Shown here piece after piece: positions 19,715 to 42,536 of a stretch of 64,000 bases of DNA (its first letter is position 1; each line of letters starts with the position of its first letter). The notes under the pieces were generated by a model. That model was given only the letters and a program-made list of their open reading frames with translations. It made no database searches and was not told the DNA's origin. The stretch is from an uncultured virus (IMG/VR IMGVR_UViG_3300021164_000690) (lineage: Duplodnaviria; Heunggongvirae; Uroviricota; Caudoviricetes), in the IMG/VR virus record IMGVR_UViG_3300021164_000690, one strand, 5' to 3'. The translations under genes and the position numbers were made by a program.

Positions 19715-19732
19715 ATGGGTCTCCAAGTTTGT

Positions 19733-19761
19733 ATTTTAACTGATATTGACGCTTGTGTCAA
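19733..19761 (-). promoter_or_regulatory. sigma70-type promoter inside the 3' end of the UGD gene
   Basis: TTGACA-17 bp-TAAAAT; TTGAC-acaagc-GTCAA inverted repeat. Confidence 0.75.
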
Positions 19762-23198: not shown

Positions 23199-23277
23199 AT
23201 CTCTCCTTATGTCATTTGCGGCTGACAAACACCCATGTTGCGGTTTATGGCCCGCCGACCTTTCCTAGCAATATTTA

Positions 23278-23649: not shown

Positions 23650-25281
23650 TTACTTCTGTAGTGAGTATTTGAAATCACTATATTGTTTTTGTAATCCTAA
23701 GATTTCTTCATCTTCGCTGTCATTAAAAGATCGAGCTAATGTGTCTAACTCTTTCATTTCTTCATCGCTTAGTGCGCCAGTTGATGGAGTTGGTTGTGGA
23801 GTTGGTTGTGGAGTTGGTTGTGGAGTTGGACGTGTACCTCCGCCACCTCCGCCACCACCACCTGGTACCGGAGTAGCGGTTGGAGTTGGCGGAGTTTCTG
23901 GAGTTTCTGGACTACCACTTAAACCGTAACCTAACGTTGCTCCAGCTGCTGTTGCGGCAAGTGCTGTTTTGCCTGGATTATTTTTTACAACTTTAGCTGC
24001 TTGATAAGCACCACGTTGAGCAGCTGGCATTGTTGCCAATTGCTTTGCAAATTTCTTTGAACCTTGACCAGTCATTTGTGCAGCACCAGTTGATGTTAGT
24101 TTACCAGTTGCAACTGGTGCACCTGATAAACCTGTCTTGGCAGCTTGGTAAATACCTTTACCAGCATTCCATGCACCTTTAACTAAGTCTAATGGACCTT
24201 CGTCAACTCTTGATTCAATTGCTTCTAAACGATCACGTAAAGCTGCATACTTTTCTGCTTCACTCATATTTTCCTTTTTAGGAGCTGCATTGGCAGTAAT
24301 TGAGTCTGCTGATAAAGGATTAGAACCAGAAGCTCGATTTTGTGCTGCCCTTAATGTTGCTGCATTGGTTGCCGCTGGCGCACCACCTGCCGCCGCAGCC
24401 GCAGGTTTTCCATTTGCCTTTGCTAGTAGCTCTTTAAAACGTTGTAATTTTTTACCTACAACTTCGCCTGCTTCTCCAGCTGCTTTTGTTAAGTCTTGAG
24501 TTGATGGACTACCTGGTGTTGGTGTTGCTGTTTGACCCGGAGTTGGAGTTGCTGTTTGACCTGGAGCTGTTGCAGTCTTGTTCATAGAATTTTGTAACTC
24601 TGAATATTGTTGCGCAATGGCTAACATTTCAGGGTCTTCTGTAGATCCAAAACCCTGTACAATTTTTCCAAGTTCTGCCATTAATGGCTTTGCTTCTTCA
24701 ACACCTTCTACTAACTGATACCCAAAACTTTCAGCTAACTGGCGAGCAATTGCTCCTTTGAAGTTTAAAGTTTCATTAGTAGCGTTGCCAACTGATCCAG
24801 TATAACTACTTCCGCTATTTGGACTTCCAGTATTTGGTGTGCTGATTGCTGCCTTAATTTTGGTAATTAATTCTTTAGCTTTTGCAATAGTTTTCTTGTG
24901 TTCCGCATCACCAGTAGCTTGTTGAGTATTAACGCTAGTTCCCTTATCAAAATTGCCAAGGCCCTTAATACCAAATAACCCACCTTTTTCTTGTGAGCCA
25001 TAAGCAGATCCAGTAGCACCTTGTGCCGCTATTGCTGCTGCCAAATCTGGAGCATAACGTTTGATCCAGTCACTTGGCATAACTTTAATTTGAGGTTCGC
25101 CACCCCCCATACGTGCATTAGTTTGATCCATGTATTTGACCTTGCCATCCTTTGGGTCAATAAATGCTGGCATGTCTACTGTGGGCTTTTTACCCATTTC
25201 TGTATATTTTGCAATAACTGCTGTTGGATCTTCAGCTTCTGAAAGCTGATCCATTTTGTTGATAAGTGCTCGTAAGTCCAT
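23650..25281 (-). CDS. Ala/Gly/Pro-rich probable virion internal protein
   Basis: MDLRALINKMDQLSE N-terminus, LAE/LVE/VDE sites, PT-rich linkers, TAAATA upstream. Confidence 0.6.
   Translation of the reverse strand: MDLRALINKMDQLSEAEDPTAVIAKYTEMGKKPTVDMPAFIDPKDGKVKYMDQTNARMGGGEPQIKVMPSDWIKRYAPDLAAAIAAQGATGSAYGSQEKGGLFGIKGLGNFDKGTSVNTQQATGDAEHKKTIAKAKELITKIKAAISTPNTGSPNSGSSYTGSVGNATNETLNFKGAIARQLAESFGYQLVEGVEEAKPLMAELGKIVQGFGSTEDPEMLAIAQQYSELQNSMNKTATAPGQTATPTPGQTATPTPGSPSTQDLTKAAGEAGEVVGKKLQRFKELLAKANGKPAAAAAGGAPAATNAATLRAAQNRASGSNPLSADSITANAAPKKENMSEAEKYAALRDRLEAIESRVDEGPLDLVKGAWNAGKGIYQAAKTGLSGAPVATGKLTSTGAAQMTGQGSKKFAKQLATMPAAQRGAYQAAKVVKNNPGKTALAATAAGATLGYGLSGSPETPETPPTPTATPVPGGGGGGGGGTRPTPQPTPQPTPQPTPSTGALSDEEMKELDTLARSFNDSEDEEILGLQKQYSDFKYSLQK
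23785..23829. repeat. 12-bp tandem repeat x3.75 encoding PTPQ
   Basis: tggagttggttg repeated. Confidence 0.9.
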
Positions 25282-25302: not shown

Positions 25303-26838
25303 TTATTTAGTTAATGCTTGTCTAGCTGCCGCACCGGCAACTGGAAGGGCCGCTGTAACTGCTGATGCTATTTTGCCGCCAGGACCAGGAGTTGCTGCTT
25401 GTTGAGGTAATGCAGCGCCATCAGGACCAAAACCATATTTTGCTGCTACTGTGGGATTCTTAGCAATTGCTGCTTTAGTTAATGGGCCAATTATGCCATC
25501 AGCATCAACACCTAATTCTTTTTGCATTTGCTTAACTCCCAAATTTCCTTGAGGTTTAGCTGCGGCAGTTGCTGGAGCTTTTGGATTAGGAGTCATTGCG
25601 CCTGGAGCCGGAGTTGCCGTTTGACCAGGAGCTGCTGCCTTTTTATCTTTAGCTGCCGCTGCTAATTGTTCTTCTTCGCTTGGAAGGAAACTACCAGTAC
25701 GTGCTTTATCTCTACCTAGCTGTGCTGCGGTCAATCCCATTGCTGCCGCTGTGCCAACAACTGGAACAAAACTTGCTAAACCAGCACCGGCTGATAGTGC
25801 AGCACCAGTGTAATCACCTTTCTTAATTCTATCGTAAGCATCAACACCGCCAGCTATTGCGCCAAGTCCTGGTAAAAATCTACCTGCCAACTTACCTGCT
25901 CCCGCTAACATGCCTGGTGCTGGTGCTGGAACCGTTGCTGCTTCTTTCAATTGAACAGCGTCAATTGGGTGTCCCATGATAATTTTTGTATTATCATATT
26001 GAACATAAGCACGACCTTCTCTAAGTTTAACAACTTTGCCAAATACTGCTTTCTTTAGTACGTTGCTGTATACTTTAACTGGTGCGCCAACTTCTACACT
26101 ACCATAGCTTTCTGCTATGCTTTCTTTCTTAGCTGTCTTGGCAGCATCCTTCCATGCTTGTGCTGTGGGTGCTTTTGGATGGCTAGCTGGTCTACTAGTA
26201 CCTGCAGCCTTGCGCTTGTTTACATTATAGTAAAGACCTTTTTTGGCTGCTTCGTCAATATCTTGTTCTTTCTTAGACAACTTCTCTGTTTCACGACGTG
26301 CTTTGTCACTTAGGTTAGTAACTTTGCCACGACCATCTTTATTAGCAGTGGACTTTTTCCACTCGCCTTCATCTTTCCAACTTGTGACTTTACCATCTTT
26401 ATCTTTTACTTCAGTACGTAACTCAGCTAGTTCCAATGCTTTGGCTTTGTGCTTAACATCGCCTTGCTTGTCAGCTTTCTTTTTATCTTTGTGTGCGCCA
26501 GCGCCACTTGTTGTTGCGTTTTTAGCTACAAAGTTGCGTGGCTTAGGAGCTTCAGCTTTAACAGTTTTGCCCTCGTCCATACGAGTCAAAACACGATTGA
26601 CAATCTTTTTAACTTGTATCTTTTTCTGCTCTTGCTGTTCTTGTAGCGCACCTAGCATTTCATTATTGACTACTTTTAAATATTCATTAATGTTGCTTTT
26701 GAACTTAGGAGTAGTTTGTTGAGGTTTAGAGTACTGTTGCATGACCATTTGTTGAGCCATGTTAGTACCTTCAGTGATTATTGTTTTTTCTTTAGTTCCA
26801 CTGTTATCAACAATGGATAGGAGTTTCTTCATGTCCAT
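25303..26838 (-). CDS. probable virion internal protein with peptidoglycan-binding domain and Gly-rich hydrophobic segment
   Basis: VKQMQKELGVDADGIIGPLTKAAI (PG_binding_1-like); LPGLGAIAGG...FVPVVGTAAAMGL. Confidence 0.65.
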   Translation of the reverse strand: MDMKKLLSIVDNSGTKEKTIITEGTNMAQQMVMQQYSKPQQTTPKFKSNINEYLKVVNNEMLGALQEQQEQKKIQVKKIVNRVLTRMDEGKTVKAEAPKPRNFVAKNATTSGAGAHKDKKKADKQGDVKHKAKALELAELRTEVKDKDGKVTSWKDEGEWKKSTANKDGRGKVTNLSDKARRETEKLSKKEQDIDEAAKKGLYYNVNKRKAAGTSRPASHPKAPTAQAWKDAAKTAKKESIAESYGSVEVGAPVKVYSNVLKKAVFGKVVKLREGRAYVQYDNTKIIMGHPIDAVQLKEAATVPAPAPGMLAGAGKLAGRFLPGLGAIAGGVDAYDRIKKGDYTGAALSAGAGLASFVPVVGTAAAMGLTAAQLGRDKARTGSFLPSEEEQLAAAAKDKKAAAPGQTATPAPGAMTPNPKAPATAAAKPQGNLGVKQMQKELGVDADGIIGPLTKAAIAKNPTVAAKYGFGPDGAALPQQAATPGPGGKIASAVTAALPVAGAAARQALTK

Positions 26839-26842
26839 GGTA

Positions 26843-28120
26843 TTATTTCTTTGCCATTATGTCTTTTTTAACTTTGCCAGCAATCTTGTTAGCAACTTCA
26901 GTTGAATAACCAGATTTTTTAGCACTAGTAACTACACCTTTGAAACCTTTGTTCCCACCAGTGTTAGGCTTGCCTACATCACCAGTTCCTTTTTTAGCTT
27001 CCATGTATGTGCCACATTCTTTTAAACCGTGGACTGGACATGCTTTACCTTTAGGTGTATGGTTGCATTTGCCTTCACCAAGTGCCGCACTGGCATTTGC
27101 TTTCTTTAAATCTGCGCCAGTGGCTCTCATGCCTGGTACTGTAGTTGTTGCTGTTGCTGGGATGGCAGATTTAGCAGCAGCACTAAGTTTATTACCTATT
27201 TGTCCTATGCTTTCTTTTGTTTTAGAACCAGATCTGCTGGCTAAAAATTCTTCATCTTCAGCATCCTGTTTGTTTCGACGGCGGAGATTAACTTTGTCTA
27301 GTGCATGGCTTTTTGCCCATTCATCTTCTTCAGCATCACGTTTGGCTTGTCGTTCTTTGGCAAATTTTTCTTCTGCAGATTCTTTAAATGGTAAACCGGC
27401 TGCTTTACGACGTGAACCAAATACTTCTTCTTTTTCAGTTTCTACTTCACCATCTTTATCAAAGTCTCTTTTAGCTTTCTTTGATTTTTTAGCTTCGTCT
27501 AATTCTTCACCTGAACCACTGTCTTTAAGACGAATGCTAGCCACTGTCCATCCGCCACTACGTGCATCACGTGCGGCACGATCACGCACTTCACTTTGCG
27601 CTTCGCCTTCGTCAGCAGTAATAGTCATGCCTTTCGTCGCGCCGTCTTTTTCTAACTTGACAAAGTATTGCTTCTTTTCAGACTTTTCAACTTTGCCTTT
27701 CTTTTTGTCTGTTGCACGTACACCACTTGCTTCATCGACCTTTTCTTCTTTCTTCTTGATCTTTTCAGCTTGAGCTTTCTTAAGGTCTTTGATCTTTTCT
27801 TTAGCTTCCATTAACTTGCCTCTTAGAGCACGTTTTTGGCTTTCTGAATAAACATCGCTGTCATCGATAGCTTGGCCGTATTCGCTAAACTTCATTTCGT
27901 ATTCCATATAGTGGTATACGCTAGCGACATAATCAGCTGCTTTTGTGATCTTAGCCTGTACCCAACCTTCTAGTTGTGTATTAGCTTCCATCATTTTAAA
28001 TAGTTTTAAACTGTAATTTGCTAACTTGTATAAGTCAGCTTTGGCCATAGCACCTTCACGGTCTCTTTCGCCGCCTGGTAAGCCATTCATATCATCTTGT
28101 GGTTGCATATCGATGTGCAT
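26843..28120 (-). CDS. charged probable virion internal protein
   Basis: 425 aa K/E-rich, multiple [LVM]-x-E-[AG] sites, TAAATA and GGAG upstream. Confidence 0.6.
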   Translation of the reverse strand: MHIDMQPQDDMNGLPGGERDREGAMAKADLYKLANYSLKLFKMMEANTQLEGWVQAKITKAADYVASVYHYMEYEMKFSEYGQAIDDSDVYSESQKRALRGKLMEAKEKIKDLKKAQAEKIKKKEEKVDEASGVRATDKKKGKVEKSEKKQYFVKLEKDGATKGMTITADEGEAQSEVRDRAARDARSGGWTVASIRLKDSGSGEELDEAKKSKKAKRDFDKDGEVETEKEEVFGSRRKAAGLPFKESAEEKFAKERQAKRDAEEDEWAKSHALDKVNLRRRNKQDAEDEEFLASRSGSKTKESIGQIGNKLSAAAKSAIPATATTTVPGMRATGADLKKANASAALGEGKCNHTPKGKACPVHGLKECGTYMEAKKGTGDVGKPNTGGNKGFKGVVTSAKKSGYSTEVANKIAGKVKKDIMAKK

Positions 28121-28143: not shown

Positions 28144-28383
28144 TTAGCGTTTTACGGGCTTGCCGCCGAAAATACTGCCCTTCATATCAAGTGCATTTTT
28201 CGCTGTTCCGTCTTTGTTTTTCGCTTGTTTTGCTTTAGGAGGCCTTGGCTTACCACCCTTTCCGTACCTGTTTCGCGTCTTCTTATTGCCAATTGCTAAG
28301 TGTGGGCTAACAACCGTAGCAATACTGCCGGCACTAGTAGAACCGGCAGTTGCTTCTTCTTGTAATATTTCCCACAACCTCAT
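28144..28383 (-). CDS. small basic probable virion internal protein
   Basis: MRLWEILQEE then ATAGSTSAGSIATV and a basic tail. Confidence 0.65.
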   Translation of the reverse strand: MRLWEILQEEATAGSTSAGSIATVVSPHLAIGNKKTRNRYGKGGKPRPPKAKQAKNKDGTAKNALDMKGSIFGGKPVKR

Positions 28384-28384
28384 A

Positions 28385-29017
28385 TTAGCTTTCTAAAATT
28401 TCCAAGCAATGATTCCAGTGTGAAATACGGTCATCAAGACCAATAGTTCCACCATTAATACGTTTGCTCAGTGCTACTACATCGCCAGTATCACAAATTG
28501 CGTTTAAATTGTTTTTCTTCCAGAACCAGCAAGCACTTAGTACTGCATATTCTGGTGTTCGTAAAAGATCTGGATCTTCTACAAGTGTATCATCACCAAA
28601 AAGATCTTTACTACATTGCGTGTAGTTACTCTTACCAGTCAATTGAAGTAATCCACGACCACGATATTTCCAGCCTTCTCCGCTAGTTTCGTCACCATTG
28701 CCCATACGACTTGAGTATACACGATTAGCAATCATCTCTGGTTTGCGTTCGTATTGTACTGCAATGTCGTCTGTTGGAAAATACTTGCCAAATGTGCCAC
28801 GTAAGCCTTTGGCTCCGTAGTTTAAGTTTTCTTGTAGTAGATTAAAATCACCACTTTCGTGCTGACATTGCGAAATAAATCCAGCGACTCTTGCTGGAGT
28901 ATTAATCTCGAACTGTGGTAAATGCTCTGCAAGTGCTTTGAACCATGATTCAGGATCTTTATTTTTGCTAATACAAGCGGCTACCTTTTCTAGTGTAAAA
29001 TCAAAATCAAAACTCAT
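28385..29017 (-). CDS. glycoside hydrolase family 19 endolysin
   Basis: Q-x-x-HESG, ENLNY, YRGRGLLQLTGKSNY, SACWFW, RINGG-x-x-GL-x-DR. Confidence 0.92.
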   Translation of the reverse strand: MSFDFDFTLEKVAACISKNKDPESWFKALAEHLPQFEINTPARVAGFISQCQHESGDFNLLQENLNYGAKGLRGTFGKYFPTDDIAVQYERKPEMIANRVYSSRMGNGDETSGEGWKYRGRGLLQLTGKSNYTQCSKDLFGDDTLVEDPDLLRTPEYAVLSACWFWKKNNLNAICDTGDVVALSKRINGGTIGLDDRISHWNHCLEILES

Positions 29018-29051
29018 TTTATTTCTCCATTGTAGTGTATTTATTGGTTTA

Positions 29052-29345
29052 TTAATCTATTGGTTTTTCACCAGTTAGATATGGTCTTGAAAACCACAAT
29101 TTAAACCACTCGGGCGTACCCGGTTTAATATCATGCTTCTTCATAAGGGCTCCTTTACTGTCACCCGTTGCACTGATATTACTTCCTTGCATACCTCTGT
29201 ATTCTTGTAGTTTAGCTTGCCCGCCTAAACCTCCGCCAATACCTGCAAGTGCTTTTAGTTCATGTATAGGATCATTGGGATCAAGATAGCAGTCATCGCT
29301 ACTATCCGTGTTTAAATCCTGTGTAGTGATCCTATACTGTTTCAT
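29052..29345 (-). CDS. hypothetical phage protein
   Basis: 97 aa, IKPGTPEWFKLWF. Confidence 0.75.
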   Translation of the reverse strand: MKQYRITTQDLNTDSSDDCYLDPNDPIHELKALAGIGGGLGGQAKLQEYRGMQGSNISATGDSKGALMKKHDIKPGTPEWFKLWFSRPYLTGEKPID

Positions 29346-29347
29346 AA

Positions 29348-30376
29348 TTATTTTTTTGGTTCCCAGTATCTTCCATTACCAAATGCTTTATCTGCAAGAT
29401 CTTTTTGGAATCCCCATGTGCGTCCGCTCTTATTATATTTTGCCTTAGACCATTTACCACTCTTAGTTTGTTTGATTCCGTAGCTGGCTGCTTCGTCTTC
29501 TCTGCCAGCTGGCACGTTATAAAAATACCTACCTACTACTACTGGTTTAGAATCTTGCTGGCGTTGCCATTCATCTTCGTGTCCTAGTTCATGTTCCATT
29601 TCACGACGTTTGAAATCACGTTTTTCATAGTCCATTTGATTTTGTTGATAGCGATCATAATCGCTTGGACTCATTAAGTCTGGGTTACGAGAGTTTTCTG
29701 CTGCCATTTTGTCTTTCTTTACTCTTACTTTGGGTTTTGCAAAGTCTTGCATACGCTGTAATGCAGTTTGCATTAGTTGTTTGACTTTTTCATCGTCAAT
29801 TTCTGGATTCATTGAATCACGCCATACTTGAAACTTTTCCTCATCGCTCATGTTGGGGTCTAACAATGCTTGACGCATAGGTGTAGCACGTGGACCTTCC
29901 TCTTCTCTGCTTGGATCATTAGTTTCTTGACGTGCAATTACTTTTAAATCATCTAAACCAAACTGCTTATACGGTTCAACTCCAGACTTGTCTGGACGTA
30001 CTAGGTATTGGAATGCATTAACCTGGTCAGCACCAACAACTACAGTAACATTACCATAGCCCATAGTAGCTAACTTTTTAAGTACTCTATTCAAGTCAGG
30101 CATTTCATCAGTTGCTGTGTTGAACACTTTGGGATTATTTGGAAATACTTGATTGTAAATGTCTAATTTTTCATCAGGACTTAACGGATCATCTTTGCCC
30201 ATTGTTTTGCTGATTACAAAATATGGATCGGCACCATCATCTTTTGCCTGTGTTAAAACGCTACTGGCCAGCATCATGTGACCTTTGTGCCCCATGCCAC
30301 GGCCCCAGCCTACAACTGCGTTTTTACTTTCGCCAGTACGGTCTAAATTCTCTATCAATAGTTCACGTAATCTCAT
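29348..30376 (-). CDS. HxGH-superfamily (cytidylyltransferase/NMNAT-like) nucleotidyltransferase
   Basis: WGRGMGHKGH, DPLS-x-x-EK, VVGADQ, RATPMR (SAT-x-x-R equivalent). Confidence 0.75.
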   Translation of the reverse strand: MRLRELLIENLDRTGESKNAVVGWGRGMGHKGHMMLASSVLTQAKDDGADPYFVISKTMGKDDPLSPDEKLDIYNQVFPNNPKVFNTATDEMPDLNRVLKKLATMGYGNVTVVVGADQVNAFQYLVRPDKSGVEPYKQFGLDDLKVIARQETNDPSREEEGPRATPMRQALLDPNMSDEEKFQVWRDSMNPEIDDEKVKQLMQTALQRMQDFAKPKVRVKKDKMAAENSRNPDLMSPSDYDRYQQNQMDYEKRDFKRREMEHELGHEDEWQRQQDSKPVVVGRYFYNVPAGREDEAASYGIKQTKSGKWSKAKYNKSGRTWGFQKDLADKAFGNGRYWEPKK

Positions 30377-31527
30377 TAGTCTTTCCTTGGAGCCCAGTTA
30401 GCTTGGTCAATTGCCTTAACAAACTGTCCTGGAACATCACGTTTAAATTCTCCGCCTGGATGGGCCTGAACATAACCTTCAGGTTTAGTTTGCTTAATGC
30501 CGCTATGTGTGCCTGCACCTAATGCAGTAATTAAATTCATCTTAGCAGCAGTTATCATCTCCACAGTGGTTAGAACTGCATCTAATCCTGGATCAGATAA
30601 AACTTTTTGTGCCATAGCTGCCGACATCTTTTTAGCTGCTACTTGATTCTTAATCCAAGACTGAAATTTATTTTTAACTCCAGCTACACGTAAATTTTGA
30701 TTAAAGAATGTATATAATATATCACCCACTTTGCTTAGTCCTGGCTTGGGTGCTAAAAAGGCATCAATAGCATCTGCATTTGCATCAATGTATTGCTCAA
30801 TTTGATCTAACTCACTATCATCAACATCTGGAGCTTCTTCAACATAAGTTGTGCCTTGCACAATAACGTCTGGTGTACTTAATTCTTCTGCGTTGGGATA
30901 ACGTGTTTCATCGCTAGTTCCCATTGTTTCGTAATAGCCAGTTGCTGCCACCATAACTTTTGCAGTTCTAATTCTTTTACCCAAGTCACTATCTGCTGGA
31001 ATATGAAAACTAGTAATGTTTGGTGTAAAATCGTAATCGCCTGTTTTGGGATTTAATTTTGCTGGTTGTCCAGGATGAAATAAAATACCACCTTCAATAT
31101 ATCCAACCTCTGGACTAATTTTTTCAAAGTAACTCCACAAACTTGCCATTTGATTAGCATAGTTTTGGCGTTGTTTTTCTTTACCAGGTTCTGTATTACC
31201 AGTACCTAAAATAAAATTTCTAATGTCTTCTGGACTATTCATTTCAGTACTAACACCGCTCTTGGTCTGTGTTGTACCACGCTTCAAATAATCCCACGCA
31301 TTTTTAGGAAATAAACGGAAAACACCATCCTCATCACGACCCCAGTATACAACTGGACTGCCGTCCCACTTTAATTCAATTGAACCAGATTGTTTGCCCA
31401 TGCTACGTAAACGTTCAACTGCATGGTGCGCTCCGTTACTGCCGTTAGTAAACGCCAAGTCTTCAATGTGTTGATACTTACGACCTACTTTGGGTGGAGC
31501 TGCTTCAAATAGTTCTCTTAATCTCAT
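30376..31527 (-). CDS. RNA/DNA-ligase-like covalent nucleotidyltransferase-fold protein (DUF6267-like)
   Basis: HIED, KWDGSP (motif I KxDG), EG, PEGYV (motif IV), VKAID (motif V). Confidence 0.7.
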   Translation of the reverse strand: MRLRELFEAAPPKVGRKYQHIEDLAFTNGSNGAHHAVERLRSMGKQSGSIELKWDGSPVVYWGRDEDGVFRLFPKNAWDYLKRGTTQTKSGVSTEMNSPEDIRNFILGTGNTEPGKEKQRQNYANQMASLWSYFEKISPEVGYIEGGILFHPGQPAKLNPKTGDYDFTPNITSFHIPADSDLGKRIRTAKVMVAATGYYETMGTSDETRYPNAEELSTPDVIVQGTTYVEEAPDVDDSELDQIEQYIDANADAIDAFLAPKPGLSKVGDILYTFFNQNLRVAGVKNKFQSWIKNQVAAKKMSAAMAQKVLSDPGLDAVLTTVEMITAAKMNLITALGAGTHSGIKQTKPEGYVQAHPGGEFKRDVPGQFVKAIDQANWAPRKD

Positions 31528-32399
31528 TTCAACATCCTTAGTGTGCGACTAAACCATTCGTTAGTACCGACTGTGGGAGTTGCGGCTTGCCAACTGCTAG
31601 ATGCCTTTGCCTTGTCGAAAATTTCATTACGTTTTGCTTCGTCTGGAATAGCATCCATTATACTTTCAACACTGCCTAAACTATCTGCATTTGCGTTTGG
31701 TCCAAGTAACGTTTGAGCAATAACATTTAAATCATCACTAATAAACTCTGCCTTCTTACCAGCAGCATCGCGTTTGTAAAGACCTTCGTCTGGACTCCAC
31801 AAAAATCCTCCACTGCTAGCAAGTGTATTAATCATCATTTGTTTATTAACACCTTTGTATGGACTGCCTGGTGGGATAGCGTGGTGATGAAATCTACTTA
31901 CAATTTCTGCTTTAGGAACAATTTTAATGTCCACTTGATAAAAACCTTCACCATAAGGAATGAGTGTATGAACTGTTACACCAGCTTTGTGGGTTTTTAA
32001 ACCTTTTTCTTTTAAGAAATCATCTAACGCTTGACGTGTTGTTTTTCCATCTTTAGTCTTAAAGAATCTAGCAGCATCATTTAAATCTGCCATAACGTCT
32101 AAGTCGCCAGATCTTTTTGGTTTTAGTTCAACACCTTGTGGTAATTCTCCAGTGTTGTATTTGTCTGCGTATGCTTTAACTGGAACAAACTTTTGTTCAC
32201 GCTCTCTGTAGATACCAATAAGCTCACCACCTAAATAAGCATTTTGCGTAGGCGTAGCACTACTACCAATGACATGAATCTTTAGACCAATTTCACTGAC
32301 AAACTCTTCAGTGGTTTGAACTAAACCGTCAATCATTTCAACAGTTTGTTCGTAATCAGTACTCTCAGGCCAAATGTTGCCGCCTTCGTTTAAAATCAT
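31524..32399 (-). CDS. Pol-beta-superfamily nucleotidyltransferase
   Basis: IGSS...SGDLDV...YQVDI catalytic signature; SPYKGV. Confidence 0.7.
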   Translation of the reverse strand: MILNEGGNIWPESTDYEQTVEMIDGLVQTTEEFVSEIGLKIHVIGSSATPTQNAYLGGELIGIYREREQKFVPVKAYADKYNTGELPQGVELKPKRSGDLDVMADLNDAARFFKTKDGKTTRQALDDFLKEKGLKTHKAGVTVHTLIPYGEGFYQVDIKIVPKAEIVSRFHHHAIPPGSPYKGVNKQMMINTLASSGGFLWSPDEGLYKRDAAGKKAEFISDDLNVIAQTLLGPNANADSLGSVESIMDAIPDEAKRNEIFDKAKASSSWQAATPTVGTNEWFSRTLRMLK

Positions 32400-32800
32400 T
32401 TGTAAGCCCCTTCACGCATATTCGTCATCTCAGATTCGTGAATTTTCTTACAAATTTCTTCAATCATTTCTTTATCTAATTCGTCTCTAAGTTCTCTTAA
32501 TGGGAATTCGTCTTTGTATATGCTATACGCTTTTGTAACAACTGGTTTAAACACTCTGTGCGAAAATGATTGACCTTGATCAAACTGTTTCTTACATAAG
32601 TTTAATATAGGAAAGAATTTTTTACGATAAAAATCATCGTTGTTGTGCATGAAATAGATAATGTCTTCAGCAAGATCGAATGAATATTCGTCATCTGCTG
32701 AGCTATGATCATTGGTCTTTTTATTCAGCCCAATTTTATCTAGCTCAAGTTCATCATCTATGCTCTTTGATGTATTATTGAATAGTTCTGTAATTTTCAT
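32396..32800 (-). CDS. hypothetical phage protein, possibly virion-associated
   Basis: MKITELF N-terminus; first gene of the NTase unit. Confidence 0.7.
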   Translation of the reverse strand: MKITELFNNTSKSIDDELELDKIGLNKKTNDHSSADDEYSFDLAEDIIYFMHNNDDFYRKKFFPILNLCKKQFDQGQSFSHRVFKPVVTKAYSIYKDEFPLRELRDELDKEMIEEICKKIHESEMTNMREGAYK

Positions 32801-32890
32801 ATATGTCCAAGCTGTAAGACTAATAACGTACTCATATTAATCCGCCGTTCGTATATTTAGCTAATTTAGCTTCTAAGGAGATTGTTCTGT

Positions 32891-33553
32891 TTAAGCTGGA
32901 ATTGCGTTGATTACGCGGTCTATTCTGCTGATTTCACTGCCTAAAAACATCTTCACCATGGTAAGAGACTTCTCATCTTTAACATAGAAGTAACTGCCTC
33001 CCCATGAATAGTCAGCTGACAATTCTTGTATGCATTTCTTAGTTAATCGAACTTTGTCACTAGTATTAGCCCATTTAATAAAGCTGTCGTAACTAGTACG
33101 AGTCTTACCCATGGTTATTTTGAATTCAAAATCAATCTTAGGTAAAAATACAGTGTTCTTTTCCAACTTGGGATACAAGAATTCGTCTGGAATACTAACA
33201 TACTTTGTACGATCAATATCAACAGACGTTAACGATACTACATCGTTAAAATCATTAGTGTAAAAACTTAATAACGGATGTTCAACTCTAATATCAAAGT
33301 TTTGAAAACTTGATAGTTTGTGTTCGAGAATTAAGCAAAAATCTAAATCCGCTAAACTTCTTAATTTACTCCATGGGGGAGACAATAAGGGTAGTTTAGT
33401 TGGATCAATTGCTTTTAGTTTGTGCCTTGCAAAGTCTAAATCACAACCCCTAAACCAAGCTGAAACTGGACATACCAGTACTGCCTTGTACTGGTATTTG
33501 TCCATAAAAAGTTTTTTAGTTTTCTTGACTAGTATTTTCTGGTTGAGTTTCAT
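32891..33553 (-). CDS. hypothetical protein
   Basis: 220 aa ORF. Confidence 0.7.
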   Translation of the reverse strand: MKLNQKILVKKTKKLFMDKYQYKAVLVCPVSAWFRGCDLDFARHKLKAIDPTKLPLLSPPWSKLRSLADLDFCLILEHKLSSFQNFDIRVEHPLLSFYTNDFNDVVSLTSVDIDRTKYVSIPDEFLYPKLEKNTVFLPKIDFEFKITMGKTRTSYDSFIKWANTSDKVRLTKKCIQELSADYSWGGSYFYVKDEKSLTMVKMFLGSEISRIDRVINAIPA

Positions 33554-35783
33554 TTTCTAGCAATAATGGCTTGATTATTTTTATTCTCTTAGTAAGAGTA
33601 ATTTCACCGTTTAACGAGCCAATAGTCAAATGCCCGCCATTCTTTAGTTCACCAAATAACATCATCTTACTTAGCGGACGTTTAATTAGTTGATCAATAG
33701 TTCTCTGCAAAGGACGAGCACCCATTTTTGAATCAAATCCTTTTTCAATTAGTAGTTCAATTGCAGATTTGTCAATCTTAATTTTAATGCCCTTTTCTTT
33801 GACCTGTGCGCTCAATTCTGCAATAAACTTGTTAACAACCTTAACCATAATGTCTTTGCCAAGTTTCTTAAAGGTAACAACAGCATCTAATCGATTACGG
33901 AATTCTGGAGCAAAAAACTTCTTTAGATCAGAATCAGTGTAGTCTTTTTCTTGTGCACCAAAGCCAATTTGATTTTTTTCACTTGCTTGTGCGCCAGCGT
34001 TAGTGGTCAATATAAGAATCAAGTTTCGGCAATCAGCTTTCTTACCATTGCTGCCAGTAACAAACCCGTTATCCATTAGCTGTAACAAAATTGTACTTAC
34101 GTCTGGATGTGATTTTTCAACTTCATCAAACAATAATACACAATTTGGATTCTCTTGAATTTGTGTAATTAGCAAGCCAGCATTTTCTTCAAAGCCAACA
34201 TATCCTGGGGGACTACCGATTAGTTTAGACACACTGTGTTTTTCTTGATATTCACTCATATCAAAGCGAATAAGTTTAACACCTAACTGTTTAGCAAGTG
34301 CTTTTGCAGTTTCAGTTTTACCACAACCAGTTGGACCCATAAACACAAAACTACCAACTGGTTTATTATCAGCTTTAAGTCCTGCACGGGCAACAAGAAT
34401 TTTATCAACTACTTCTGTAATAGCAGTATCTTGCCCATACACCTCTGCTTGTAACTCTGTTTCCAAAGTAGACAAATTACTGGATTCAGTTTCGGCAATT
34501 TGCTCTGCTGGCATTTGAACCATTTGTGCTAGTTCGTATTGGATTTCACGTTCACCAACAACTCGTTCATCTGCAAGTTTTAAGTTAAATCGAGAACATG
34601 CACAGTCAATTAAGTCAATTGCTTTATCAGGCAACTTCTTATCTGCTTGATATTTAACGGACAACTTAATTGCAACATGTAAAGCTTCATCAAGAATTTT
34701 AACTTTATGATGACCCTCGTAATACTTCTTAAGACCTTTTAGAATTTGCAATGCTACTTCTGGAGTGGGCTCATCAACTGTAATGCGTTGGAAACGACGC
34801 ATGAGCGCACGATCTTTTTCAAAGTGCTTGCGATATTCATCCCATGTAGTTGACGCTACAACTTTAATGTTACCTTTGCTTAATGCAGGCTTCATCATGT
34901 TGGCAAGGTCATTGGCACTATTTCCAGAACTGCCAGCACCGCTAATCATGTGTGCTTCGTCAATAAACAGTACAGTCTTGCCTTTCTTTTCTAATGCTTT
35001 GAGAACAAGTTTAAAACGTTCTTCAAAATCTCCACGATATTTAGATCCAGCAAGCATGGCACTGATATCTAAATTAAACACTTGGTAATCTTTTAGAAAA
35101 TCTGGAACTGCACCATTAACAATGTTAAAAGCAAGGCCTTCAGCAATAGCGGTTTTACCAACTCCTGGATCACCAACTAGCATTACGTTATTTTTACTTC
35201 TACGTCCCATTGCTAGAGCAATATTTTCTAATTCTTCAATACGACCTATTACAGGGTCAATTTTATTCTTCTTAACTGAATCGTTAAGATTGGTTGTGAA
35301 TGCTTTTAACGCTCTTTCGCTTTGATTATCATGCACTTCTTCTTCGCCGCTTTCTACTTCGTTGTTAATGTAATCGGCAAATTTATCTTTGTCAATTTCT
35401 GCTTGTTGAATATAATATAATGCCCATGATCGTTTTTCACCCATCATTGCTAGGAAAACGTCTGATGGTTCAATTTGTTGACGACCATTAAACAACACTT
35501 GTGTAAACGCACGATTTAACACACGTTCAACTGCTTGTGTCTTTTTAGGTTTACCAACGGTATTGGTCACAATATCGTTGAGTTTAGTTTTTAGATAATG
35601 TTCAAGATTTTTTTTGATATACTCGGGATCAGCACCGTATCCTTGAACACATTTAAAGAAACTTTCTTCGCACAGCATGGAAAAAAGCAAATGCTCAACA
35701 GTCAAGTACTCGTGTTGTAGTTTTTTGGCTACATCAATGGCCTTTTCAAAAACTAACTTTAAATTCTCACTTGGTTCTACCAT
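33516..35783 (-). CDS. clpA: ATP-dependent Clp protease ATP-binding subunit ClpA
   Basis: HEYLTVEHLL, GDPGVGKT, GSKYRGDFEER, GPTGCGKT, RFDMSEY, IGF loop, GARPL. Confidence 0.93.
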   Translation of the reverse strand: MVEPSENLKLVFEKAIDVAKKLQHEYLTVEHLLFSMLCEESFFKCVQGYGADPEYIKKNLEHYLKTKLNDIVTNTVGKPKKTQAVERVLNRAFTQVLFNGRQQIEPSDVFLAMMGEKRSWALYYIQQAEIDKDKFADYINNEVESGEEEVHDNQSERALKAFTTNLNDSVKKNKIDPVIGRIEELENIALAMGRRSKNNVMLVGDPGVGKTAIAEGLAFNIVNGAVPDFLKDYQVFNLDISAMLAGSKYRGDFEERFKLVLKALEKKGKTVLFIDEAHMISGAGSSGNSANDLANMMKPALSKGNIKVVASTTWDEYRKHFEKDRALMRRFQRITVDEPTPEVALQILKGLKKYYEGHHKVKILDEALHVAIKLSVKYQADKKLPDKAIDLIDCACSRFNLKLADERVVGEREIQYELAQMVQMPAEQIAETESSNLSTLETELQAEVYGQDTAITEVVDKILVARAGLKADNKPVGSFVFMGPTGCGKTETAKALAKQLGVKLIRFDMSEYQEKHSVSKLIGSPPGYVGFEENAGLLITQIQENPNCVLLFDEVEKSHPDVSTILLQLMDNGFVTGSNGKKADCRNLILILTTNAGAQASEKNQIGFGAQEKDYTDSDLKKFFAPEFRNRLDAVVTFKKLGKDIMVKVVNKFIAELSAQVKEKGIKIKIDKSAIELLIEKGFDSKMGARPLQRTIDQLIKRPLSKMMLFGELKNGGHLTIGSLNGEITLTKRIKIIKPLLLENETQPENTSQEN

Positions 35784-41549: not shown

Positions 41550-42460
41550 AGATGAGCTAACCTAATTAATGTTGCGGCCAAGTTAATTTCAACATCACTT
41601 ACTAACGTGTGATCAACTAAGCCTTGTTTAATAATAAGAATTGCTTTTTCTTGCTTTGCGTCATCACCAAATATTGTAATGTTGTCGTATAACCAGCGAT
41701 AAATATCTTCCATCTCTTCTGGACGTGCTTGGCTACACACTAGTTTACGTGCATCTGCAATTTTGCCAGCCTTAAATAATTCAACCATCTCAAATTTGTA
41801 GTCTGCTTCACCGGCATCACTCTTTTCTGGGCGATGCAATTTACCATCCATACTGTTCATTTGTACTGAATTGATGCACTTACGCAAATCTGGATATGTT
41901 GCGGCTACATAATTTGCCAATGTTTCGTCATCATACACAATACTTTCTGCTTTAAGAATAGTTTCAACCCGCTTAAACACTTCAAGTTGATCAACTTTCT
42001 CAACGTGGAAACCTTGACAACGACTGTGCAATGCTGGAATAATACGATTAGGATAGTTACACGTTAAAATAAATCGACTAGTTGTTGCATACGTTTCCAT
42101 AACACCACGTAAGGCTGCTTGTGCGTTTGGACTCAAGTAATCTGCCTCATCTAACATTACAACTTTGAATGCACCAAACGGAATCATTTGTACAAAGTTG
42201 ATAATCTTAGTACGCACAGTGTCTACATCGTTTTCACGACTAGCGTTAATTTCTAAAACGTCTAAATCGTTTACACCTAACTCGTTAAGCAAAATCTTTG
42301 CCAGCGTCGTCTTACCAATACCAGCGTTACCGCTAAACAACAAATGAGGGATTGTTCCTTCTTTAATCCAGCGTTGTACTTGTGCTTTTTGATGTTCATC
42401 TCTAAACACATAACCGTCAACTCTAGCTGGACGATACTTTTCTACCCATAATTGTTTCAT
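41546..42460 (-). CDS. clamp loader AAA subunit (T4 gp44/RFC small-like)
   Basis: LWVEKYRP, G-x-AGIGKTT, INAS, LDEAD, SRC. Confidence 0.92.
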
Positions 42461-42477
42461 AATCACTCCTTTTGTAT

Positions 42478-42516
42478 ATTATACAGGTAAGAACAGGACT
42501 AGTCAATAGTCCTGTT
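42478..42516 (-). promoter_or_regulatory. sigma70-type promoter whose -35 sits in a hairpin loop
   Basis: TTGACT-17 bp-TATAAT; aacaggacta-TTGAC-tagtcctgtt. Confidence 0.85.
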
Positions 42517-42536
42517 GGGTTAGGTTAACCGTTTAC

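Follow-up and report, generated by a model that had tools for sequence, protein, structure and literature searches.

ASFV packs its repair enzymes in virions. Its Pol X (174 aa) is a minimal family-X polymerase with palm and thumb only; in fill-and-seal repair its partner is a viral ligase, alongside an AP endonuclease (PMC9353306). In Phaeocystis globosa virus, PgVPolX is a natural fusion of PolX with a ligase, able both to fill BER gaps and to seal them, with a LigA-type NAD+-dependent ligase domain and dRP/AP lyase activity (PMC5537341). For Deinococcus, PolX acting together with a nick-sealing RNA ligase of the Rnl5 type has been proposed to repair DNA nicks ended by ribonucleotides (PMC5397189). 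Jumbo phages encode RlaP, a Pol-beta-superfamily transferase that is linked genetically to an RNA-ligase-type enzyme and predicted to restore nucleotides ahead of ligation; the available portion of that account reports neither leaders nor HxGH partners (PMC7824862).

A different kind of system is known from T4, where the head cargo (IPI, IPII, IPIII and Alt) comprises diverse proteins carried behind a conserved tag (PMC3012670 and PMC9026906). The short N-terminal leaders of IPII, IPIII, Alt and gp24 share a single pattern ending in [LI]-x-E. The protease gp21 cleaves behind L/I-X-E, and for loading the 10 N-terminal residues of IPIII are enough (PMC9026906).

We suggest, at a confidence just short of even, that a late operon with the order p134-PolX-ligase-HxGH-p97 encodes a head-loaded fill-and-seal kit for nucleic-acid repair. 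The window analysed (64,000 nt) is from an uncultured jumbo T4-type freshwater phage, whose DNA polymerase is nearest to those of Sinorhizobium phage Phosso, Agrobacterium phage Atu_ph07 and Rak2-like phages. As in ASFV, a minimal family-X polymerase is paired with a ligase; however, this ligase belongs to DUF6267 (Rnl2/Rnl5-like) whereas that of ASFV is an OB-fold DNA ligase, the phage unit has no AP endonuclease, the host is bacterial, and an HxGH enzyme and T4-type leaders are added. Fusions in relatives resemble PgVPolX, but with a ligase from another family and, in the model of a fused relative (P0136), no 8-kDa lyase domain. The pairing also recalls RlaP, from which the polymerase differs in being of family X with a thumb, and the ligase in being DUF6267. 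Whereas the T4 cargo consists of small basic inhibitors or an ADP-ribosyltransferase, the proteins here are putative repair-type enzymes and, in relatives, polyprotein-like fusions. Our literature search found no published description of the enzyme trio.

Gene unit and its linkage in relatives

The unit consists of five ORFs on the minus strand. The first gene, p134 (32396-32800), encodes a small leader-bearing protein beginning MKITELFNN; it is followed by p291 (31524-32399), a minimal family-X DNA-polymerase-like enzyme; p383 (30376-31527), a DUF6267, ligase-type nucleotidyltransferase; p342 (29348-30376), a HIGH-motif nucleotidyltransferase with an NMNAT-like core and a variable C-terminal extension; and p97 (29052-29345), a small conserved protein. 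The overlapping, coupled arrangement reported in the first-pass annotation was confirmed: p134 and p291 overlap by 4 nt (the stop of one over the start of the other), p291 and p383 by 4 nt, and p383 and p342 by 1 nt, with a 2 nt gap before p97. The p134 gene had been absent from that annotation. Searches of Pfam, PHROG, NCBIfam and PADLOC gave no family match for p134, and family-profile searches gave none for p97. A gene for a ClpA homologue (33516-35783) lies upstream. No tRNA genes were found in the window, and family searches of the unit gave neither a kinase nor a phosphatase for end healing. Protease and head genes lie outside the window and were identified in G002, a relative whose PolX is 58% identical to that of the window.

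The minus-strand sequence CTAAATA (32854-32860), in the context GCTAAATATAC, resembles a late promoter and lies 59 nt ahead of p134. The presence of a TAAATA motif ahead of the unit, as claimed earlier, stands and its position is suggestive, but there is no overall enrichment: TATAAATA occurs once against 5.66 copies expected and CTAAATA 10 times against 13.55. Of 25 motif copies on the coding strand, 13 precede a gene start by no more than 80 nt, in many cases that of a tail or virion gene, and the context G[CA]TAAATA is found 22-59 nt ahead of tail, baseplate and virion genes, the endolysin gene, p425 and p543. This promoter-like element, common to tail and virion genes, is suggestive of late timing for the unit.

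Among the best 150 of 1157 matches, every type of fusion between the three enzymes is present. PolX+DUF6267 fusions measure 615-634 aa, and one 984-aa ORF (L013) carries the PolX, DUF6267 and HxGH domains together; in BFVD, DUF6267 is fused to cytidyltransferase-like domains, including in cyanophage S-PM2. As relatives fuse the three in every combination, the enzymes are likely to act together, and the proposal of a functionally linked enzyme kit gains strong support from these natural fusions of all three domains. Linkage was also checked in 80 related loci: 37 have the order p134, PolX+DUF6267, HxGH, the four genes are separate in 33, and one has the triple fusion. A p134 homologue precedes PolX in 75 of the 80, a p97 homologue is present in 62, and 71 have a ClpA homologue upstream. 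Since the loci are closely related to one another (66-100% identity), their gene order is weak evidence on its own.

A counterpart exists in cyanophages, where 'T4-LIKE GC 71' (DUF6267; E 6.3e-137) and 'cytitidyltransferase' (GC 190; CTP_transf_like, E 1.4e-4) form an orthologous pair. The two genes are adjacent and overlapping in P-HM1 (PHM1_161/162) and MED4-213, and are fused in S-PM2. Unlike p383 and p342, these proteins are without a leader. No PolX partner was found for them, and the product of the upstream gene (GC 533) fails the PolX profile.

Three nucleotidyltransferase folds

The first-pass annotation had proposed three nucleotidyltransferase folds, and structural models support all of them, with only middling scores for the ligase. 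All 24 aligned homologues of p291 keep the residues of the Pol-beta-type motif (G45-S46, D99-x-D101 and D157) unchanged, and likewise E5-G6-G7-N8 and W10. An insertion of about 44 residues (52-95; 32115-32246, minus strand) occupies the loop between GS and DxD in the alignment of homologues (columns 80-128); it is missing in 248-aa relatives, and the loop is short in L012. Structure figures for the polymerase and the ligase refer to the model of P0136, a PolX+ligase fusion (mean pLDDT 92), and not to the window proteins. Its polymerase part matches Pol beta with Z 12.0 (172 aligned), ASFV Pol X with Z 11.6 (161 of 176 residues) and Thermus PolX with Z 11.6, whereas other Pol-beta-fold nucleotidyltransferases reach at most 9.0, in most cases across no more than about 100 residues; some CD-NTases are among these weaker matches (Z 6.4-8.4, palm only). 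The top 50 Foldseek matches in the PDB are all Pol lambda or beta (E values starting at 1.8e-6, with roughly 20% identity across some 200 columns), and p291 has no Pfam match, RlaP included, even at E<=10. Together, the alignment and the model show a predicted family-X palm and thumb with the catalytic carboxylates intact. The Pol-beta-type nucleotidyltransferase of the first pass is accordingly read as a family-X DNA polymerase rather than a CCA-adding or signalling enzyme.

The ligase-type protein p383 matches Pfam DUF6267 (E 1.4e-18). Its KxDG motif, already recognized in the first pass, is nearly invariant as K53-W-D-G across 16 homologues, in which E145/G146, E350/G351 and K371 are invariant. 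The elements RKYQHIED16, KWDG53, EGYV350 and K371 are collinear with KKYSSLEN3, KIHG35, EGYV204 and K225/K227 of T4 Rnl2, and their spacing is alike, with 21 residues from EGYV to the lysine in both proteins. In sequence, p383 has the lysine motif and the collinear motifs of Rnl2-type ligases. The ligase part of P0136 is best matched by NgrRnl (Z 6.5, 178 aligned) and TbREL1 (Z 6.2, 172 aligned), both short of the Z of 8 from which the tool regards a match as secure, and the ESM Atlas gave one weak lead, PF09414 RNA_ligase (score 0.76). The nick-sealing RNA ligases T4 Rnl2, Rnl5 (Deinococcus DraRnl, Naegleria NgrRnl) and trypanosome REL1 otherwise show no significant sequence or profile similarity to p383; BLASTP and hhalign comparisons with T4 Rnl2 and gp30 gave no match. 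Unlike Rnl2, p383 has about 150 residues between motifs IIIa and IV, largely helical in the P0136 model (helices 476-570), lacks an Rnl2-type C-terminal domain, and has a single lysine in motif V.

The HxGH motif of p342, likewise noted earlier, proved to be H30-K-G-H33 within a signature (GWGRGMGH-x-GH, GxDQ, RQ and GPRATxxR) that is invariant in 23 homologues. The protein matches the phrog_3041 cytidyltransferase profile (E 8.8e-19) and is not recognized by the Pfam CTP_transf_like model. Its own structural model (pLDDT >90 over residues 11-210, the NMNAT-like core) is closest to NadM (Z 11.0, 163 aligned) and to NaMNATs (Z 10.1-10.5), followed by PPAT (9.8), FAD synthetase (9.5) and glycerol-3-phosphate cytidylyltransferase (9.3); the best Foldseek match is the NaMNAT 8aih (E 6e-4). 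Model and motifs thus show a predicted fold and an HxGH signature of NMN/NaMN adenylyltransferase-like enzymes, and because the Z values fall off gently the fold does not fix the substrate.

N-terminal leaders and fusion junctions

A portable leader with the consensus M-[KR]-[LI]-x-E-[LF]-[LFI] begins p134, p383 and p342. In p383 it reads MRLRELFE (31504-31527, minus strand), ending L-F-E before AAPP, and in p342 MRLRELLIE (30350-30376, minus strand), ending L-I-E before NLDRTG. A capsid-targeting N-terminus had been ascribed to all three enzymes; this holds for these two and fails for MILNE of p291, which we rejected as a leader because the invariant E5-G6-G7-N8 and W10 sit in the polymerase domain. 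The window also holds p79 (28144-28383, minus strand), a small, basic, leader-bearing neighbour (pI 10.7) that begins MRLWEILQEE, has homologues in 30 of the 80 related loci and is a candidate internal protein.

Counted over distinct proteins, the leader is present in 44/44 p134 homologues, 20/21 stand-alone DUF6267 proteins, 49/50 HxGH proteins and 27/27 PolX+DUF6267 fusions, and in 0/18 stand-alone PolX proteins; it follows the N-terminus of the polypeptide, whichever domain comes first. Matches occur at 4 of 75 gene N-termini in the window against 0 of 420 internal Met, and at 7 of 352 against 1 of 1820 in G002, and the leader is therefore more than chance. Its conserved residues are spelled with many synonymous codons, which points to selection on the peptide. 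In the models of P0136, where it precedes PolX, and of p342, it is a detached, low-confidence helix over residues 3-8 (pLDDT about 56 and about 55, respectively) plus a linker, disordered in P0136. It is missing in 7 of 23 aligned HxGH homologues and in some distant DUF6267 proteins.

The leader resembles those in the T4 record, namely MELITELFDE of Alt, MAKINELLRE of gp24 and MKTYQEFIAE of IPII and IPIII. The fusion junctions also keep what sequence comparison identifies as T4-type [LI]-x-E sites: [LIVMF]-x-E stands immediately ahead of the next domain in 38 of 39 distinct PolX-ligase and 6 of 6 ligase-HxGH junctions, against a baseline of 5.7% of all 16-residue windows in the PolX-ligase fusion proteins. 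In G002 we found a gp21-type Peptidase_S77 gene (E 1.4e-26), a 79-aa gene beginning MILRELFYLDPE that follows the portal and takes the place of gp67, and several further unrelated genes that bear the leader. These features suggest p134, the ligase and the HxGH enzyme as head cargo. The stand-alone polymerase has no leader, so that of the window may stay unpackaged unless it rides on a partner. Adjacency of the unit to an endolysin gene, an arrangement resembling T4 e-ipIII-ipII, was seen in just 7 of the 80 related loci.

Proposed fill-and-seal repair and alternative readings

A family-X polymerase with an Rnl2/Rnl5-like ligase suggests that gaps are filled from a template and nicks then sealed. 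In the reading we favour, the polymerase would fill short duplex gaps, possibly with ribonucleotides, the ligase would close the remaining nick, and the HxGH enzyme would make or recycle a nucleotide cofactor or an adenylylated intermediate for the reaction. The kit is probably loaded into the head: acting like the T4 capsid-targeting sequence, the leader would dock p134, the ligase, the HxGH enzyme and any fused polymerase into the prohead core, and a gp21-type protease would cut behind [LI]-x-E. Ejected alongside the DNA, and ahead of phage gene expression, the trimmed enzymes might mend a genome that arrives nicked or gapped, or repair breaks that host defences have inflicted. Given the polymerase and ligase, the earlier suggestions of tRNA end repair, protein nucleotidylation and signalling-nucleotide chemistry become less likely.

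The same enzymes might nevertheless not be head cargo, and the leader might be a docking helix that brings the separately encoded subunits into one cytoplasmic complex, or a tag recognized by the ClpA-like unfoldase encoded just upstream; we consider this unlikely. The leaders could all attach to the leaderless polymerase as their hub, the orthologues in cyanophages function with no leader, and the P-HM1 record marks a nearby gene, and not the DUF6267 and cytidyltransferase genes, as encoding a virion protein. Yet if the leader were a docking helix, one would not expect [LI]-x-E to stay conserved at junctions from which the helix has gone, proteins as unrelated as p79 and those of G002 share the leader, and it is closely like the gp24 and Alt propeptides. 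A phage ClpA may translocate unfolded proteins or help assembly (Iyer et al.; PMC7824862), but its frequent linkage here may be plain synteny among close kin. Rather unlikely, in our view, is an RNA repair kit, packaged or not, in which the Pol-beta-fold enzyme would restore lost nucleotides of cleaved host or phage tRNA, rRNA or mRNA and the Rnl2-like ligase would reseal them, in the manner of the predicted RlaP and RNA ligase pairs of jumbo phages and as a counter to defences such as anticodon nucleases. Duplex RNA is filled by a Pol-beta-fold TUTase and sealed by an REL ligase in trypanosome editing, and the ligase of the unit finds its best matches, its collinear motifs and its weak ESM Atlas lead all among RNA ligases. 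The polymerase, however, matches family-X palm and thumb (Z 11-12), while RNA-specific nucleotidyltransferases do not exceed Z 9.0 and in most cases align with the palm only; RlaP is described as working with RNA ligases in jumbo phages (Iyer et al., 2021; PMC7824862), but p291 lacks any RlaP match. Moreover, tRNA breaks need an end-healing kinase or phosphatase, which the unit lacks; the window has no tRNA genes, and Rnl2/Rnl5-type ligases close duplex nicks, not loop breaks (PMC5397189).

We consider it very unlikely that the HxGH enzyme serves as an NMNAT rebuilding NAD+ that host defences have depleted, with partners acting on nucleotides or signals rather than polynucleotides. Its best structural matches are NMN/NaMN adenylyltransferases, and two cyanophage homologues are annotated, one as such an enzyme and one as NadR-like; but p342 is divergent enough to escape the CTP_transf_like model, the CD-NTase matches of the polymerase are confined to the palm, and NAD+ salvage explains poorly a fusion to a thumb-bearing PolX and a ligase. 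NAD+ rebuilding as the main role, raised in the first pass, is further weakened by the canonical Nampt and NMNAT pair elsewhere in G002, where a Nampt-family gene (E 6.3e-64) lies beside a CTP_transf_like gene (343-aa frame), with two more of the latter type at other positions.

Composition and setting of the gene unit

The window is a portion of a large T4-type phage genome in which the minus strand holds nearly all genes. It encodes a family-B DNA polymerase (20532-23228) and a ClpA-like double-AAA+ ATPase (33516-35783, minus strand), together with a clamp loader, PhoH, a DnaJ-domain protein, and virion and tail-fibre proteins. In DNA-polymerase sequence, Sinorhizobium phage Phosso is the closest isolate at 49% identity, followed by Agrobacterium phage Atu_ph07 at 47% and Rak2-like jumbo phages at about 43%; related metagenomic contigs reach 299,582 bases. 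The unit considered here lies on the minus strand and comprises p134 (32396-32800), whose product starts with MKITELFNN, p291 (31524-32399; a predicted minimal family-X polymerase, PolX), p383 (30376-31527; DUF6267), p342 (29348-30376; HxGH enzyme) and, as its last gene, p97 (29052-29345). Successive overlaps of 4, 4 and 1 nt join the first four genes and a 2-nt gap precedes p97, which confirms the overlapping, coupled nucleotidyltransferase genes of the first-pass annotation (p291, p383 and p342; 4 and 1 nt).

Searches at E ≤ 0.001 returned 371 homologues of p291, 471 of p383 (word-index search) and 592 of p342. A nucleotide search of the phage collection with positions 29000-33000 of the window gave no match, and tblastn of p291 against the phage collection found no homologue in any phage record. 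NCBI-sourced clusters gave no names for the homologues, PADLOC and NCBIfam gave no families for the unit genes, and no tRNA genes were found in the window. Like p291, p134 had no match in the sequence-family libraries up to E 10. Pieces of the unit with zero differences occur in contigs of four metatranscriptome-labelled runs from lake or fresh water (four studies), and in one of these runs 29 of the 30 bins along the 13-kb stretch as a whole are covered; because DNA carry-over is possible in contigs from RNA libraries, these matches neither show transcription nor rank the genes.

Directly upstream of the unit (32891-35783, minus strand), the gene for the ClpA-like ATPase is accompanied by an overlapping 220-aa gene (p220) without known family. 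Among the best 80 of 309 related loci, ClpA is upstream in 71 and p220 in 46. A DnaJ-domain gene and a holin-like gene lie further upstream of the ClpA-like gene in the window.

Identity of the three enzymes

The residues G45-S46, D99-x-D101 and D157 of p291 are invariant in all 24 aligned sequences. Pol-beta-type enzymes carry the signature hG[GS]x9-13Dh[DE]h, and short-loop relatives fit it (12 residues from GS to DLD in the related locus L012); the loop between GS and DxD is about 44 residues longer in p291, the extra segment being missing from 248-aa relatives. A Pfam search with p291 at E ≤ 10 gave no family, DNA_pol_B_palm and DNA_pol_B_thumb included, except a chance YtxH match. Pfam includes a model for the RlaP family, and p291 had no match to it at E ≤ 10. 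PDB sequence and profile searches gave nothing relevant to p291, only chance matches, and the ESM Atlas results (NTP_transf_2, 0.94; DNA_pol_B_palm, 0.84; DNA_pol_B_thumb, 0.78) are used as leads only.

The folds of the polymerase and the ligase were read from a model of P0136, a natural PolX-DUF6267 fusion protein of a relative (616 aa, mean pLDDT 92; 71% identical to p383). The top 50 Foldseek matches of its first domain in the PDB comprised Pol lambda and Pol beta entries only (lowest E 1.8e-6, about 200 columns, about 20% identity). A structure search independent of Foldseek returned Pol beta (Z 12.0), ASFV Pol X (Z 11.6, 161 of its 176 residues), Thermus PolX (Z 11.6), Pol lambda (Z 11.3) and TdT (Z 10.9). 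These PolX members align over 161-191 residues of the model at Z 10.9-12.0, which indicates a thumb contiguous with the palm; for TUTases, CD-NTases and poly(A) polymerases, Z does not exceed 9.0 and the aligned stretch is mostly no longer than about 100 residues. Given the palm and thumb matches, the model indicates that p291 is not a generic Pol-beta-fold transferase but a minimal PolX made of palm plus thumb, with predicted template-directed activity. It has no 8-kDa domain and no fingers domain, and shares its minimal build with ASFV Pol X. The earlier description as a Pol-beta-type nucleotidyltransferase thus stands for the palm motifs and is narrowed to PolX with a thumb.

In Pfam, p383 matches DUF6267 alone (E 1.4e-18), over its N-terminal part only. 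Across an alignment of 16 sequences, E145-G146, E350-G351 and K371 do not vary, and K53, D55 and G56 hardly do. Four of its motifs follow the order of T4 Rnl2 (T4 record): RKYQHIED at residue 16 and KKYSSLEN at 3; the motif I lysine in K-x-[DH]-G, KWDG at 53 and KIHG at 35; EGYV at 350 and 204; and K371 corresponding to K225 or K227, the distance between EGYV and this lysine being 21 residues in each protein. The KxDG motif on which the first-pass annotation had based its ligase-type assignment is therefore borne out. We read E145-G146 (IEGGILF) as the probable motif III; about 150 residues, largely helical in the P0136 model (helices within model residues 476-570), lie between motifs IIIa and IV. 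The ligase part of the P0136 model resembles two nick-sealing RNA ligases, NgrRnl (5cot, Z 6.5, 178 residues aligned, rmsd 4.7) and TbREL1 (1xdn, Z 6.2, 172 aligned, rmsd 4.8), middling scores that come from the 616-residue two-domain model and lie below the caution line of 8 for the tool. BLASTP of p383 against T4 Rnl2 found nothing (E 0.95), hhalign of DUF6267 gave probabilities of 0.2 with T4 Rnl2 and 0.1 with the T4 DNA ligase gp30, and PDB sequence and profile searches returned chance matches only. The related viral record G002 encodes a separate ATP-dependent DNA ligase (E 1.8e-23), which argues that DUF6267 is an auxiliary rather than the replicative ligase; no NAD+-ligase domain was found in G002.

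For p342 the protein of the window itself was folded, with pLDDT above 90 in core residues 11-210. GWGRGMGH30-K-G-H33, GxDQ, RQ and GPRATxxR are invariant in 23 of 23 homologues, and the model has a Rossmann-like HIGH-motif fold with a C-terminal helical subdomain, an assignment from the model of which we are sure; the HxGH nucleotidyltransferase recognized at first pass is thereby upheld. The best Foldseek match was the NaMNAT 8aih (E 6e-4, probability 1.00), and the structure search ranked NadM (2qjo, Z 11.0, 163 aligned) ahead of NaMNATs (10.1-10.5), PPAT (9.8), FAD synthetase (9.5) and glycerol-3-phosphate cytidylyltransferase (9.3). Because Z falls so gently to the last three, NMN or NaMN is a candidate substrate only. 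PHROG places p342 in phrog_3041, 'cytidyltransferase' (E 8.8e-19); Pfam CTP_transf_like misses p342 and matches the orthologue of cyanophage P-HM1 at E 1.4e-4, and PDB sequence and profile searches with p342 gave nothing. In G002 a Nampt-family gene and a canonical CTP_transf_like gene (343-aa frame) lie about 1.6 kb apart, so that the divergent HxGH enzyme of the module is probably not simply the NMNAT of the phage. The C-terminus of p342 (29348-29362) stops after ...YWEPKK, and relatives about 97% identical (e.g. P0241, 380 aa) run on for 38 residues to ...GVGIVTKQNTTADVGPGTLNKMLKAFKLS, a conserved tail that is found repeatedly at HxGH C-termini; six near-identical loci comprise four with the short and two with the long form.

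Structure prediction with structure searches, a check proposed at first pass, thus supported PolX and HIGH folds and gave the ligase Z 6.2-6.5. We judge it likely that the three enzymes are correctly identified by fold.

Gene fusion bears on whether they work jointly. The related locus L013 carries a single 984-aa ORF of PolX, DUF6267 and HxGH with a C-terminal module; L012 has the split arrangement of the window, and PolX-DUF6267 fusions are numerous among the homologues, at lengths of 615-634 aa. When such a fusion served as query of a full HMMER scan, 1157 matches reached E ≤ 0.001, and the best 150 of these included PolX+DUF6267, DUF6267+HxGH and triple fusions at identities down to 32%. 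The best 80 of 309 related viral contigs are close relatives, with ligase identities of 66-100%. Among them, 37 have the order p134, PolX+DUF6267, HxGH; 33 have four separate genes and one a triple fusion, two are without PolX, and seven are cut by contig ends. Conserved order among close kin is weak evidence of joint action and repeated independent fusion is strong evidence, and we consider it very likely that the three enzymes act together. Poorly conserved catalytic residues or unlinked genes in relatives had been named as grounds for doubt; the catalytic residues proved invariant or nearly so among the homologues of p291 (24), p383 (16) and p342 (23), and the genes are linked or fused in most of the best 80 of 309 loci.

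T4-like cyanophages have a DUF6267 gene ('T4-LIKE GC 71') that directly adjoins and overlaps one annotated 'cytitidyltransferase'. In BFVD, DUF6267-like and cytidyltransferase-like domains occur fused within single proteins, among them one of cyanophage S-PM2. Comparison of the PolX profile with the P-HM1 GC 533 protein by hhalign gave nothing, and hence no PolX partner is shown in cyanophages. The window gene p425 (26843-28120, minus strand) encodes a Lys/Glu-rich, basic protein (pI 9.3) with the Cys/His motif CNHTPKGKACPVHGLKEC; this type of motif also ends the product of the small P-HM1 gene GC 535 (...CNKSKGGVDCPIHGTKECP), downstream of the cyanophage cytidyltransferases, and synteny with the cyanophages therefore extends past the enzyme pair.

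N-terminal leaders and the question of head cargo

Similar leaders begin p383 (MRLRELFE), p342 (MRLRELLIE), p134 and the neighbouring p79 (MRLWEILQEE). The leader pattern occurs at 4 of 75 gene N-termini of the window versus 0 of 420 internal Met residues, and in G002 at 7 of 352 versus 1 of 1820. Counted over the best 80 of 309 loci, DUF6267 proteins standing alone carry it in 20 of 21 cases and HxGH proteins in 49 of 50; all 27 PolX+DUF6267 fusions (ahead of PolX), all 44 p134 proteins and the single triple fusion have it, and none of 18 stand-alone PolX proteins does. As far as the sequences tell, the leader goes with the N-terminus of the polypeptide and not with a domain. Stand-alone PolX proteins start M-x-L-x-EGGNxW, and since EGGN and W are invariant residues of the PolX domain, the MILNE of p291 is no tag and is ruled out as a targeting peptide. 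The capsid-targeting-like N-terminus that had been ascribed to each of the three enzymes is accordingly retained for p383 and p342 and withdrawn for p291.

Two other explanations of the leader can be discarded. A translation signal at the nucleotide level is ruled out by the many synonymous codons used for the conserved residues. Methionine aminopeptidase does not remove Met before Arg, Lys or Leu; the initiator Met is expected to stay, which rules out an N-degron. In both models (P0136 and p342) the leader is a detached helix (residues 3-8, pLDDT about 55) followed by a linker.

The leader resembles propeptides of T4 (T4 record), namely Alt MELITELFDE, gp24 MAKINELLRE and IPII/IPIII MKTYQEFIAE. 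In T4, gp21 cleaves after L/I-X-E, and ten N-terminal residues of IPIII are enough for loading into the head (PMC9026906, PMC3012670). Leader ends of the [LI]-x-E type are seen in p383 (MRLRELFE/A), p342 (MRLRELLIE/N) and p134 (MKITE/LF), and p291 has none. In fused genes the internal leaders are gone, yet a hydrophobic-x-Glu site stands immediately ahead of the next domain. It is found at 38 of 39 distinct PolX-ligase junctions (typically ...PINE/AAAPAVGRKYQH), at 6 of 6 ligase-HxGH junctions (typically ...LQE/NINRTG) and in 72 of 74 stand-alone ligases; the background is 5.7% of all 16-residue windows of PolX-ligase fusion proteins. These kept junction sites, in our opinion the most telling result, are as expected of a polyprotein processed by a gp21-type protease. 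The head module of G002, a relative whose PolX is 58% identical, follows the T4 order and includes a Peptidase_S77 gene (E 1.4e-26; frame at 260528-260974); at the gp67 position behind the portal lies a 79-aa gene starting MILRELFYLDPE. The nearest record (G001, 14% complete) gave no Peptidase_S77 match, and the window spans no head module.

Other observations count against packaging. The leader is missing from 7 of 23 aligned HxGH homologues and from some distant DUF6267 proteins, the cyanophage orthologues are without it and in P-HM1 are not marked as virion proteins, and the leaderless stand-alone PolX is a further point. A co-fold of p291 with p134, on which a leaderless polymerase could conceivably ride, was run without controls and scored 0.00 versus a mark of 0.32, which counts neither way. 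A parallel with the e-ipIII-ipII region of T4, where endolysin lies beside internal proteins, was dropped because an endolysin is a neighbour in only 7 of the best 80 of 309 loci. A ClpA-related role of the leader is an alternative that the presence of ClpA upstream of the unit in 71 of those 80 loci keeps in play. From these sequence comparisons we judge the chances to be even that the leader-bearing enzymes, at least, are carried in the head.

C-terminal extensions of some HxGH proteins are fused-on leader-bearing small proteins (e.g. internal ...REMRAKEFVAE...). Recurrent tails on HxGH proteins are ...KQNTTADVGPGTL.K.LKAF.L and ...KKNKYG[IV], the latter common to HxGH proteins and separate leader-bearing small proteins starting MRAKEF. 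The p79 gene (28144-28383, minus strand; 79 aa, pI 10.7) is a candidate for a small internal or core protein; the segment after its leader (ATAGSTSAGSIATVV) resembles that of the G002 major capsid protein after a putative L-S-E site (SASTGATSAGNVATL; locus L015, 6088-7278). Further leader-bearing genes of G002 start MRIDEIMAAT, MKIHEILSEA, MKIYQLLETP and MKLKELINES, and in two of these four a Cys motif of the ...VPNCV type is present or closes the sequence; P-HM1 GC 534 ends with it too. The G002 regions for the Nampt/NMNAT-like genes, the ATP-dependent ligase and the extra leader genes are approximately 91224-93716, 42368-42913, 100117-101135, 135204-135893 and 146091-146828.

Expression timing and proposed function

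The start of p134 is preceded, at a distance of 59 nt, by the motif GCTAAATATAC. The 64-kb window has a single site of the canonical T4 late promoter TATAAATA where 5.66 are expected, fewer than chance would give, and CTAAATA is not enriched (10 versus 13.55 expected). Of the 25 TAAATA copies on the coding strand, 13 precede a gene start by no more than 80 nt, usually in the form G[CA]TAAATA. These 13 sites, 6-59 nt upstream of gene starts (e.g. 56483, 49507, 47167, 43122, 39376, 32859, 29043 and 28146), precede tail, baseplate and virion genes, p134, the endolysin gene, p425, p543 and leader genes. G[CA]TAAATA is a candidate late promoter of this lineage, differing from T4 TATAAATA. Its position before virion-type genes makes it plausible that the unit is late, as first proposed from the TAAATA motif; the motif upstream of p134 and the 13 copies before genes agree with that proposal, and the lack of overall enrichment leaves lateness as plausible only.

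A PolX with a thumb and a ligase of the duplex-nick-sealing type would form a fill-and-seal pair, and the HxGH enzyme, because it is found fused to the ligase, may serve that reaction too, by supplying or recycling a cofactor or intermediate of nucleotide type. We slightly favour duplex or ribo-patched DNA over RNA as the substrate. Precedents have been published: ASFV Pol X is paired with its ligase (PMC9353306), gap filling and sealing are demonstrated for a PolX-NAD+-ligase fusion of PgV (PMC5537341), and Schmier et al. propose for Deinococcus that a polymerase, possibly PolX, incorporates ribonucleotides, which the ligase DraRnl, of the Rnl5 type, would then seal (PMC5397189). If our reading holds, a natural fusion of PolX with a nick-sealing ligase of the RNA-ligase type is exactly the pairing of Schmier et al. 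for ribonucleotide-patched repair, and the fused enzyme would open the physiological role of Rnl2/Rnl5 enzymes to direct assay.

In the most specific form of this scheme, which we consider improbable, the module would be a self-sufficient break-repair machine injected from the head. PolX would patch gaps, perhaps with ribonucleotides, DUF6267 would be a new ligase family sealing the ribo-nick, and the NMNAT-like enzyme would produce or restore the adenylyl donor of the ligase locally; NAD+ could come from NMN, for instance, or ATP from NAD+ and the pyrophosphate released by the polymerase. If so, an incoming genome could be mended even in cells drained of ATP or NAD+ by abortive infection, and Rnl2/Rnl5-type nick-sealing ligases would have their first physiological role in a virus. 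From the broader reading, of a fill-and-seal kit probably loaded into the head, it would follow that head loading of arbitrary proteins by the ten-residue tag of T4 is widely used among uncultured giant phages, that the tag delivers nucleic-acid enzymes, partly as polyproteins cut by the prohead protease, and that DUF6267, widespread (471 homologues) and kept in marine T4-like cyanophages, gains a testable job.

A literature search on DUF6267, the cyanophage 'cytitidyltransferase' and the combined module found no paper on the module. PolX-ligase repair pairs, T4 capsid-targeting cargo, and Pol-beta nucleotidyltransferases with RNA ligases (RlaP; PMC7824862) are known kinds of system. What appears to be new is the grouping of a minimal PolX, a DUF6267 ligase and an NMNAT-like enzyme, leader-tagged and with putative protease sites, in hundreds of uncultured phages, a combination not found in the literature searched.

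Among other genes near the unit, p511 (25303-26838) and p543 (23650-25281), both on the minus strand, encode large, basic, Ala/Gly/Pro/Thr-rich proteins with loosely leader-like N-termini (MDMKKLLSIV and MDLRALINKM, respectively); p511 weakly resembles DUF7230 (E 2.2e-4) and PG_binding_1 (E 0.0059), and both proteins may be ejection or internal proteins. Near the DNA polymerase are a QueE-like radical-SAM gene (7748-8620) and sugar-nucleotide-type genes (15413-20530, minus strand; UDP-glucose-dehydrogenase-like and alcohol-dehydrogenase-like), which hint at DNA base or sugar modification.
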